A DNA stretch of 64,000 nucleotides from an uncultured Fibrobacterota bacterium (GTDB lineage: Bacteria > Fibrobacterota > Chitinivibrionia > Chitinivibrionales > FEN-1185): positions 29,117-93,116 of the forward strand of contig CAVWBU010000040.1 of assembly GCA_963753345.1 (NCBI GenBank). The letters are read 5' to 3'. How positions within the stretch are numbered: position 1 is the stretch's first letter; each line of letters begins with the position of its first letter. Position numbers: made by a program. Of the stretch, positions 24,001 to 27,000 are shown in pieces.

Positions 24001-27000
24001 GTGAGCCGTGACCTTATAGGCATAGCAACCCCGTTCCCAATGCCGCGAACAGCAGCGCCGTGTGCAGCGCCATGGCCGAGTTACAACCTGGAATAAAATA
24101 ATAGAGCAGCGGCACGCCGAAAACGTATCCGATAACGGCCAGCAGGCCTGTCCCGCCCACAATCACTCCTGTGGCCGTCGGCTTGGGCGGCGCCTTGGCC
24201 GGATTAATGATGACAACAATGCCTGCCATGGCAATCAGCAGGAAATCGATTATGGTGGGAATGGACGGTATTCCCGGAACCACGCTCCTTGCGTCGCCGG
24301 GGTCCTTTACAAACAGGCTCTCGATCCCGCTTTCGATGCCGAATACGGCGGAGAAAAAGAGCAGGCCCATGAGAAGGGCAAGGGTAAATGAGGTGATGGA
24401 AAGCGCCACCTGCGCCTTTTCAAACTCGCCCTCGCTCGCTCTTGCCAGAAAGTAAAGAGAGATTCCGCTTATCACAAACGCAAATGCGGTGGAGAATTTC
24501 ATGGTGACAAAGGCCGGACCGATGCTCTTGATGAGCACGATGTCGAACAGCCAGCCCGCCATTACTGCGAGTCCCGCGGCGGTGACGACGAGACGACAGA
24601 ACCTTGACGAAAGTATGGTTGGTTTGGTTTGGCATAGTCATTCCAAGAACAAAGTCATTGGTCATTGGTCATCAGAAAGAGGTCATTGGAAAAAAGTCAT
24701 TGGGGAAAAGGTTAAGAATATCATTTCTGCATCCTGGTTTCTAATGACAAATGACTAATGACCATTTTTTATTATTCCGCATCTCCCGCCTCCGGGGATG
24801 GATTCGAGTTCCATTGGGGGCCGCTTTCCGCAACGCCCTGATAGTCGTTCCCGATGGATTTGATATACGCATTGAGCATCCGGCCGAGACGATTGAGATC
24901 CTGCTCGAACTTCCGGTGGTCTTCCCCGGAAATCAACTTTCGTTGTTCGGCCTTAAGGAGCCAAGTCTTGGTTTCGAACAGAGATCCTCTGCCGTAGTAG
25001 CCGAAGTGCCTGTTCTCCTTGTAATGGAACCTGCCGAACCCCTCGCTGATGTTCGCGGCAATCGAATCCGCCGCCCTTACAAGCTGCTTCCCTACCGTGT
25101 CTTTTGCAAAGGAATCCCAGCGTGCGACCTCGGTCCAAACGCGTTCCCCGATGTCTATGGCGATCCGGTAGACTTCAAGTTCGTCTAAGGTCATGTTGAG
25201 TTCCGCAGGAAGAAGACGTTGGTCATTAGTCATTAGTCATTAGTCCCAGTCAACAGCCACCACTCAAGAGACATTTTCCAACAAGCGATCAATATTTTCG
25301 AATGACCGATGACTGATGACAAATGACCAATGACCATTTTCTCTATTCCTCCACCTTATACATCGGTTCCATCCCCGCCTTCCCGCACAACTCGTTCACC
25401 TGTTTCTTGAGCTCGACCATGCGGAGCTCGCGGTCCACTGCGACACGGTTGAAACGCGACAATTCCTCGTTGGAAACGCGCAGTTCCTCCAAGTGCCGAG
25501 CAATCTCTTCTTCCGCCTTCTTTCGGTCGGTGATATCGCGCAAGATGACCACCGAGGCAACTTCTCCGTCTATTGTGTAAGCTGACACGCGCACGTCCAT
25601 ATCGAACGCCGTTCCGTCTTTCCGAAGGCCGCGGGTTTCGTAACCTGAAGGGGCGGAATCGCCCCGTGCGCGCAGGTGGACGTTCTCCGCAATTACCGGC
25701 CGCTGGGAAGGCGCGATAAGGTCGGTGATCGATTTCCCGATAAGTCCATCGTTGTCTGAGTAGCCGAAAAGCGCAAGGTATGCGGGATTTGCCGCTATAT
25801 GTATTCCGGCTTTCGATACACCTATGGCATCGACAGATGTCTCGAAGATGGCCCGAAGCTTGGCCTCGCTTTCCCGCAGCGCCTCGTCGGCCCGCTTACG
25901 TTCGGTGATGTCCGTATGAACCCACAGCCTGCCGAATATTTCTTCACCGATGCGAATAGTCGTGAAATCGCGCAGCATAACCCGTTCCCCACGCATCACG
26001 ACTTCTTCGGATTTTACGGGCAGGCCCGCACCGACTATTTCGCCTATGCGGGCCACGGCCGCGTCGGGCTCTTTGTACGACGGCCGGATCTTGTCGATTA
26101 TTTCGGCCGCCGACAACCCGGCCAGGCTGTCGGGAGAATCTTTGAGTCCGAAAATATCGCAGAATGCCTGGTTGGCAAATTCCACACGGTCTTGGTTGGT
26201 AACGAGCAGGATGCCGAAATTCATGTTCGAAAGGATCAGGTAGAACCTCATCAGGGTTGTTTGCAGCTTCTCTTCCAACTGCTTACGCTCGGTAATGTCG
26301 TGGGCCACTACCGTCGCGCCAGCTACGGCGCCGTCTTTCCAGTGGAACGTGGTGTTCACGAGCGCCCACACGAGGCGCCCGGCCTTTGTCCGCACCCGGA
26401 ATTCGGTTGATCCCTCGGGCCGCTCGCCTGCCCGCGCCCTGCGGACCCGGGACTCAAAAACGGCCTTTCCTTCGTCGTCAAGGATGTCCTGGGCGGACAT
26501 GGCGAGCAGCTCGTCGCGCGTGTAGCCGAGGACCCGGCACATCACGTCGTTGACTTCCGTGAAACGCCCGGTGGCGAAATCAACGTCATAGATGCCCGCG
26601 GGCGCGTACTGGATCAGGTGACGGTACCGTTCTTCGCTTTGGCGCAAGGCCTCTTCCAACACCATGTGCTCGCTGATGTCCTGTACCGCCACCGCGCACC
26701 CCGCCACCTCGCCGGCCGCGTCCAGGATGGGCGCGGCGCTGTTGTGAACGACGCGTTGCACGCCGTCAAAGCCTGTGATCCGGATGATCTGGCCGACAAC
26801 GGATTCTCCGGTGCGCAACGCCCGGGAAGACGCCCATTCATCGGGCACTATGGTTTTCCCCGTGTCAGCCCATTCCGCCTTGTCTTGAATGTAATCGCCG
26901 ATACTTTTTGCAGCCGGCTTTGGGTTGCCCCAGATGGTATCGAACGCCCGATTTGCAAGGACGGTCCCGCCTTGCGTGTCGAGCACCGCAACGCCCACGG

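Follow-up and report, generated by a model that had tools for sequence, protein, structure and literature searches.

Genes of the PF05635 family of four-helix-bundle proteins commonly lie between a tandem array of short repeats and the reverse complement of that array. Such an inverted bracket was found at 234 of 296 PF05635 genes pooled from five host groups, and 62 have no bracket. Gene and arrays together may form a minimal mobile element, in which a tandem array, the PF05635 gene and an inverted tandem array follow one another over ~450-700 bp. The gene product, as a pentamer, would read the core of its own array. From the sequence comparisons described below, we put the probability of this reading at about 55%. 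A link between gene and array had been proposed for the genome studied here in the genome-wide survey's note; with a bracket at 234 of 296 genes the link is real and general, and the interpretation given in the note is partly supported and is extended here to many hosts. The pool includes two loci (L200 and L212) from unpublished genomes, and no claim depends on these two alone.

A doubly bracketed gene and the arrays of its genome

The window is the 64,000-nt stretch of DNA that was analyzed, part of one contig of an uncultured Fibrobacterota bacterium. It contains a PF05635/TIGR02436 gene on the minus strand (24772-25194) that encodes a four-helix-bundle protein of 140 aa from its probable start (PF05635, 90.3 bits with a cut-off of 33.8; TIGR02436, 90.2 bits with a cut-off of 24). 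The open frame runs to 25233, passing through the inner array described below; the start is likely at 25194 rather than at 25233, because an 88%-identical homologue (L035) starts at the equivalent position. The insertion site is the junction of the gene for a multi-PAS protein upstream (25343-28165, minus strand) with a membrane-protein gene downstream.

The gene is bracketed twice, with a full hairpin on either side and two nested inverted pairs. On the gene strand (minus), the order is GGTCATT x5, AATGACT x3, gene, GGTCATT x3 and AATGAC x4-5. The outer upstream arm (25299-25342, GGTCATT-type) lies directly 3' of the stop codon of the PAS-domain gene, and its orientation, with GGTCATT on the gene strand, is typical for the clade of the window protein. 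Separated from it by 58 nt, the inner upstream arm (25219-25245) forms a hairpin with the outer upstream arm and also pairs with the inner downstream arm (24741-24764, GGTCATT-type), which is found 7 nt past the stop codon of the gene. The outer downstream arm (24637-24703, AATGAC-type), ~45 nt from the inner one, pairs with the outer upstream arm. A single nucleotide separates the last unit of this downstream arm from an ATG at 24635, and this ATG corresponds to the start of the next gene in the relative G001. The inner arms are 24 nt long and 96% complementary, the outer arms 55 nt and 78%. The element of 716 nt is predicted to fold into a nested rod (z -7.2), and none of 20 shuffles was equally stable. 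Intergenic tandem heptamers, for which no partner gene is known, occur in cyanobacteria as STRR, and GGTCATT is presumably one of the cyanobacterial STRR units. A neighboring DUF559 cassette (28100-28833, minus strand; gene at ~28202-28612) has direct copies of a ~105-nt palindrome, CCCCTCTCC..GGAGAGGGG, around its gene.

Five genes of this genome exceed the PF05635 cut-off, and a further one is of a suffix type. As the note had stated, all five lie in inverted arrays (5/5 by eye), among them the gene at the C28 site, which is interrupted by two stops, and the suffix-type gene has direct repeats instead of inverted ones. No rRNA family was found at the five loci, one of which is adjoined by the SRP RNA. 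Tandem arrays in the genome are mostly of period 7 (138) and period 8 (134), with no more than 39 arrays at each of the remaining periods between 4 and 12, and 41 inverted pairs are present among 405 intergenic arrays. Gene-less hairpins of the same units, also described in the note, do exist: among the 41 pairs, we counted 19 of the GATT type, which are one family of about 70-145 nt, and 13 of the GTTGA type. A reversed-genome control is valid for GATT (3 vs 83 matches) and unusable for GTTGA (227 reversed matches), because the GTTGA unit is mirror-symmetric. Nearly half of the GTTGA arrays (143 of 292) are within 250 nt of a different composite repeat with ~200 copies. Three to five units are present in 271 of the 292, a number that fits five protein pockets and also fits simple decay. 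The GCGT- and GTGACAAA-type arrays have no gene of theirs in this genome, and the surroundings of its gene-less arrays yielded no remnants of a gene.

Occurrence across hosts and turnover at orthologous junctions

The homologue set combines 80 close relatives of the window protein with the results of family searches in five host groups, where PF05635 matches per genomes sampled were 19/31, 30/61, 19/31, 18/31, and 23/31; the loci taken from these searches are the best-scoring ones, a subset of all matches. The titles of the close-relative records name Fibrobacteres, Lentisphaerae, Verrucomicrobia, Bacteroidetes, Ignavibacteria, Cloacimonadota, Clostridia, delta proteobacteria, and others. After removal of truncated flanks or partial matches, 218 of 245 genes were retained for a strict tandem score, which detects inverted arrays at 127 of the 218, direct arrays at 33, and arrays at 36 of 676 control ORFs. 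Local alignment of the flanks against shuffles (z ≥ 3) gives inverted matches at 192 of 246 genes and direct matches at 45, as compared to 4 of 76 non-adjacent control genes. Of the 50 genes that make up an independent set analyzed later (all those of five further genomes), 42 are bracketed. The dominant period among 159 strong cases is 7 in 86, 8 in 14, 10-11 in 11, and unclear in 43. Internal stops occur in 14 of 250 PF05635 genes, and the gene is more AT-rich than its flanks in 95% of 273. On plasmids, there is one PF05635 copy (cyanobacterial), which lacks arrays and is outside the 296; the viral contigs searched with the window query gave no relative, and the RNA runs listed no RNA holder.

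Filled, remnant and array-free empty states were seen at five junctions. At ffs-dnaX, the unit is present in G000 and G001, a gene-less GATT bracket is found in G002, and G003 and G004 are empty and array-free. At the C31 site, stop and start codons are 1-8 nt apart in four relatives, and in G005 the arrays persist, along with a short fragment of a gene (by eye). The C28 site is filled in G001 and G004 and empty in G003; in G005, a broken GIY-YIG-like gene (by eye) and its own palindromes are located within a GTTGAC bracket. The carA-carB junction is filled in G002 and empty in the genome studied here. G004 has counterparts of both hairpins and of the gene at the window site, and G001 has a DUF559 cassette there in place of the four-helix gene. 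In the present genome, the DUF559 cassette is found one gene further upstream, at a junction that lacks the DUF559 gene in both G001 and G004. Inspection by eye of the two cleanest empty sites, C31 and carA-carB, revealed no target duplication; the compared genomes are 78-93% alike there.

Comparison of these sites shows gain and loss of gene and arrays as a whole at junctions of co-transcribed genes, and the mobility of the unit is well supported on these grounds. Given that the empty orthologous sites are array-free, the arrays would arrive with the gene, and gene-less brackets would be deletion remnants or amplified derivatives rather than empty targets. The proposal of the note that heptamer arrays are the empty partners of these genes therefore calls for correction, as gene-free orthologous sites are mostly array-free. 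Its report of different units at one orthologous site is true of the units, but the core is constant (GTTG at C28, GATT at ffs-dnaX).

Both neighbors are co-directional with the gene at 179 of 227 loci. Via 50 picks among bracketed loci we sampled 93 neighbors, of which 56 could be named and 37 have no NCBIfam match at E ≤ 1e-12. Those named are unrelated operon genes (argJ-argB, era-der, nuoC-nuoD, pstA-pstB, citE-citF, cas1-cas4, metH-metF), with no transposase, integron integrase or reverse transcriptase among the 56. A mobilizer encoded in cis is rejected as far as the named neighbors go, none of the 93 being recognizable as one; an enzyme of this kind may still be among the 37 unnamed.

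Repeat cores, protein lineage and fold

The view that the core tracks the protein lineage rather than the host is well supported by the comparison of arrays and proteins. A common core is found in 3-6% of protein pairs below 50% identity, 31% at 50-60%, 56% at 60-70%, and 90% at 70-80%, and the nearest protein with <80% identity has the same core in 39% of 207 cases (null 7%, maximum of 500 shuffles 12%), or, once the window's clade is left out, in 30% of 162 (null 5%); the genomes sampled are related and the pair counts are not independent, so these figures are not p-values, and core sharing fades below 50% identity. At the four-fold degenerate sites of the same genes, agreement is 0.30-0.345 versus 0.275-0.31 expected, and it is 0.32-0.345 versus 0.29-0.31 when set beside the 56% and 90% figures; silent sites are near saturation where the core is still common to pairs. 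Paralogues of the same genome have a common core in only 3 of 28 pairs, and in G377, 9 of the 13 paralogues examined each have their own distinct unit (by eye).

On the protein tree, clade cores are constant across hosts (by eye), with GTCATT in the window's clade and GATT in the RTKxFAL clade; the cores of other clades, also by eye, are GTTGA, TCAGC, GATGC/GTTGC, and AAT. A GTCAT bracket is present at 42 of 72 window-clade genes and at 2 of 226 others. The GTCAT spacings in this clade are 7, 10 and 11, and the bases between the cores are free. These comparisons show a core of 4-6 nt that is constrained, with spacer bases and period variable. Outlasting silent sites and tolerating a changed period, the non-coding core would behave like a binding site, and we infer that the protein recognizes it.

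To our knowledge, two structures have been solved for the PF05635 family and no function has been assigned, and we know of no catalytic activity of the four-helix Avd-type fold. PF05635 is the sole Pfam match of the window protein, the model of which is all-helical (pLDDT 93.7). The model aligns with 2GSC (Xcc0516; Z 19.4, rmsd 1.5, 113 aligned, TM 0.80-0.85), with BT_0352 (Z 16.8) and with Avd (4DWL; Z 14.5, rmsd 1.7, 106 aligned, 8% identity), and a wide fold search gave nothing above Z 12.3 outside the family and Avd. In 296 sequences, Q37, S44, N48, E51, and E74 are conserved at 94-99% and R40 at 82% (K in 12%), and the net charge across the PF05635 domain is ~0. The median dN/dS is 0.08, with values <0.5 in 46 of 46 pairs, and by this measure PF05635 proteins are under purifying selection.

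Five equivalent pockets would suit a tandem repeat. A period of 7 nt seems better suited to a single strand wound around a protein ring, for which TRAP is an analogy, than to duplex DNA, and the 10-11 spacings of the window's clade leave room for duplex binding. The window protein is predicted to form such a homopentameric ring because 2GSC and 2RLD have five chains each and because of passages of PMC4990558. In the Avd pentamer, flipped-out RNA bases occupy the crevices between protomers, with the same residues contributed by different protomers; Avd binds an RNA stem-loop and is positively charged (passages of bioRxiv 2023.10.23.563531). The likeness of PF05635 to Avd is noted in PMC10053308, the accessible passages of which contain nothing further on it.

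Candidate mechanism, competing explanations and known systems

If the PF05635 unit is mobile as proposed, every one of the equivalent inter-subunit pockets of the pentamer would recognize a single core of the pentamer's own array. The DNA bound would most likely be single-stranded or extruded as a hairpin, and the bound pentamer would mark both ends of the element. The strand break could be made by the protein itself, by means of the near-invariant polar set (Q37, S44, N48, E51, E74) with R40, or by a trans-acting enzyme. Through host repair, new junctions would acquire a copy of the unit, and where this copy lands in the loop of a hairpin already present, as would often happen, nested stems like those in the window would arise. 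Gene loss would leave the bracket behind, and short gene-less hairpins would spread as non-autonomous copies.

A bolder version, which we advance tentatively and hold to be doubtful, is that PF05635 pentamers read single strands in a sequence-specific manner, perhaps as nickases with a new type of catalysis, mobilize their own gene and have seeded heptamer arrays in many phyla, each clade reading a different 4-6 nt core. The 23S intervening sequences with the gene would then be insertions, the DGR protein Avd a domesticated member, and GxxExxY and DUF559 further enzyme-repeat pairs of the same guild. For each PF05635 protein, the proposed element supplies a predicted ligand that is legible in its own flanks, and with natural variants for many short cores this small-protein family could be useful as reagents. 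The element also suggests a candidate origin for 23S intervening sequences (an open question in passages of PMC4990558), a candidate route of orphan heptamer arrays across phyla (an open question in passages of PMC4679880), a candidate answer to the origin of Avd (likewise an open question in the literature), and, for some of the seven-base repeats in bacterial genomes that still lack an explanation, a source that can be tested.

Several of these observations could instead reflect an element that acts at the RNA level. Here the arms would pair in the transcript, as an mRNA version of the 23S intervening sequence, and excision by RNase III or looping out would preserve operon expression, with the pentamer binding RNA repeats and a reverse transcriptase acting in trans for spread. 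A Coxiella stem with GACAGAT heptamers is indeed cut by RNase III (passages of PMC4990558), the window element has a stable predicted fold, Avd binds an RNA stem-loop and is the partner of a reverse transcriptase, and the neighbors of PF05635 genes are mostly co-directional, although co-direction is also expected from the need of a host promoter. However, no reverse transcriptase was found among the 93 neighbors or, with two queries, in this genome, and the charge of the PF05635 domain is ~0, whereas Avd is described as positive. The arms, which are 82% paired over a median of 42 nt, have no sense-strand excess of G.U (274) over A.C (307), as expected of independent binding sites, and a selected sense-strand mRNA stem is not supported. 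We consider the RNA route unlikely.

A passive origin would require neither recognition nor mobility: slippage would build the arrays, template switching would mirror them, AT-rich genes would be carried along, and the match of core and clade would reflect descent. Most arrays in this genome are solitary or inside other repeats and other small genes are also bracketed, in line with such a by-product. The array-first test with TAACTGA points the same way, with a PF05635 gene within 1 kb at 0 of 80 loci (out of at least 129), a weak result because only ~2 would be expected at ~10 gene-adjacent arrays per 400, as in this genome. Slippage and descent account poorly for a core that outlives the gene's silent sites and survives period changes, for same-genome paralogues with different cores, for a separate repeat class in every other bracketed family, for empty sites without arrays, and for the rarity of brackets at control genes, and we find this origin rather improbable. 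Marginally less probable still is that the unit is a cargo cassette, with hairpins serving as recombination sites for a general, integron-like enzyme elsewhere and a protein that does an unrelated job, e.g., in defense or addiction. The hairpin-gene-hairpin layout and the DUF559 exchange at the window site are what a cassette would produce, purifying selection fits a useful cargo, and the genome does encode an integron integrase (430 bits, cut-off 265). Yet the integrase gene lies on a different contig, where its neighbors are host genes and another composite repeat and none of these cassettes; the elements are single and dispersed, and with a recombinase in common each genome should have a single type of site, whereas the cores track the cargo protein. 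An integron cassette is rejected on the location of IntI and on the cores following the protein clade, with no attC model used.

The proposed PF05635 element appears to parallel Ssn/SRM and RAYT/REP, with a different fold. Ssn GIY-YIG single-strand nucleases are flanked by their own hairpin repeats and cut them, and a repeat is near 71% of Ssn homologues and on both sides of 42% (passages of PMC11893778). Like the window element, SRM-ssnA-SRM has a small single-domain gene, a cognate flanking repeat, homologue-specific variants and many gene-less copies; unlike the inverted tandem 7-11 nt arrays and four-helix Avd-type fold of the PF05635 unit, it consists of single 20-50 nt hairpins and a GIY-YIG nuclease. 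The window protein is not an Ssn, having no GIY-YIG domain (all-helical model, PF05635 only in Pfam). RAYT genes are flanked by REPs or TIRs (passages of PMC3733652), and in both RAYT-REP units (REPtrons) or TIRtrons and the PF05635 unit, a gene lies between inverted repeats and non-autonomous hairpin copies lie elsewhere; here, the gene has cognate inverted repeats, and copies that lack the gene occur at other places. RAYT units encode an HUH/Y1 transposase, whereas the repeat unit at PF05635 genes is a tandem heptamer, PF05635 is the sole profile of the protein, and this genome has no match to PF01797 (HUH/Y1 transposase) at E ≤ 1e-6. Membership in RAYT-REP/TIRtrons is rejected for lack of a Y1 transposase.

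In the 23S intervening sequence of Coxiella, a terminal stem of 28 bp with tandem GACAGAT heptamers encloses a PF05635-family gene, and RNase III cuts at the first repeat; passages of PMC4990558 call its origin unclear and cite an older idea that the intervening-sequence ORF served mobility. The intervening sequences with an S23p ORF in Coxiella and Leptospira share the family, the terminal inverted stem and the tandem heptamers 5' of the gene, and the window gene likewise lies within a terminal inverted stem with tandem heptamers. They are located within the 23S rRNA gene, whereas PF05635 units are found at protein-gene, tRNA and SRP-RNA junctions, and by location, with no rRNA family at the five loci of this genome, the window element is not one of them. 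The rRNA case has the look of a single insertion by a general element; the accessible passages of PMC4990558 do not make this link. The note had presented the inverted layout and the gene link as new; we found no report of a general PF05635-repeat link in the literature searched (most subscription journals being outside reach), but the Coxiella instance is published in PMC4990558.

The DGR accessory protein Avd (4DWL, 8UB7) has the same fold and is a pentamer with repeated base-reading crevices, but the window gene has no reverse transcriptase or template repeat nearby and its product is near-neutral in charge. Avd genes checked for a bracket gave z of 3.5, -0.2, and 0.4. Membership in DGRs is rejected, as the neighbors of the window gene are the PAS gene and the membrane gene and NF033474 is not among three NCBIfam matches at E ≤ 0.001. 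The PF05635 unit would work like an Ssn or RAYT unit while falling outside those families, DGRs, integron cassettes and, by location, rRNA intervening sequences.

Orphan TAACTGA arrays have been described without a partner gene, and the mechanism by which they cross phyla is called not evident (passages of PMC4679880; one supplement searched gave no matches). Like the window arrays, they are intergenic tandem units that often end 1 nt before a start codon, and they also form inverted pairs. Five TAACTGA-rich genomes include one with a clearly cognate PF05635 gene (L568), two with a partial one and two with none. Among 200 sampled genomes, triple GTCATT is present in 11, a close window-clade gene in 3 and both in 2. 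This co-occurrence is ambiguous, as reverse arms from other clades match the pattern too. In the genome richest in GTCATT (G377, 46 matches), the matches belong with L387, a gene of another clade with the same unit reversed.

The inverted-bracket layout is not unique to PF05635. One TAACTGA bracket encloses an unrelated 124-aa gene, GxxExxY genes have inverted arrays in 13 of 20 cases, mostly with a period of 9, and DUF559 genes have GC-rich palindromes in 8 of 12. Since each family keeps its own repeat class, the finding widens to a guild, and the arrays are not generic.

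Orientation and composition of the arrays

In some clades the bracket around the four-helix-bundle gene is reversed, with A-rich CAAAT or AATGACC upstream (L590, L591 and L387), so that two clades can be served by one unit in opposite orientation. The inner and outer array pairs of the window likewise present one unit in both orientations. In many arrays of the window clade, the protein relatives of the window gene, short GCGAAGC, GCGCAGC or GCGTAGC segments are found between the cores (flanks of L046, L050, L052, L059, L067 and L094). These inserts look like the very stable GNA-loop DNA mini-hairpins, and this likeness hints that DNA of the element is single-stranded at some stage. 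Downstream of the window element, the gene for the membrane protein apparently has one base more than in the related genome G001 close to its start (window 24562-24635, minus strand), which would put its first codons out of frame with the remainder.

Unusual homes and other passengers of brackets

A PF05635 cassette of ~430 nt lies inside a CRISPR array (L302, 1446-1873), where it occupies the position of a spacer between the final two repeats, both of which are degenerate. Brackets can also carry other passengers, as a TCAGTTA..TAACTGA bracket of ~770 nt (L471, 1000-1830) encloses a gene of 124 amino acids that has no Pfam match. Genes of the GxxExxY family (TIGR04256) are surrounded by inverted arrays of their own in 13 of 20 cases (L306-L327), mostly with a period of 9 and with CACAGAG, CGCAAAG, CACGGAT or CACGAAT as unit types; G001 has one hairpin of this class without a gene at a site where the genome under study has none. 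The suffix-type gene (L006, contig C41 of the genome under study, 281766-281972) has ~110-nt direct repeats together with its own GAATGGGA/TCCCAT-type units, and is preceded by a hairpin. The gene belongs to a type I restriction locus, and a further four-helix gene lies 2 kb away.

Repeats associated with DUF559 and integron integrase genes

The DUF559 gene of the window is flanked by direct copies of a ~105-nt palindrome (28100-28833 in all, minus strand). In G001 the DUF559 cassette occupies another junction, adjacent to the one used in the window genome. Inverted GC-rich palindromes were found at 8 of the 12 DUF559 genes checked, and the genome under study contains 157 CCCCTCTCC/GGAGAGGGG motifs. 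The DUF559 gene and its palindrome are a candidate for a second nuclease-repeat pair.

A stand-alone integron integrase (L601, contig C18 of the genome under study, 30733-32029) is directly followed by a composite repeat of 400-450 nt that recurs at about 200 sites across the same genome. Its GCGCGTTAGG motif occurs in 209 copies and its GGGAACGCCCA end in 221, and many copies of the repeat contain nested heptamer arrays and other hairpins.
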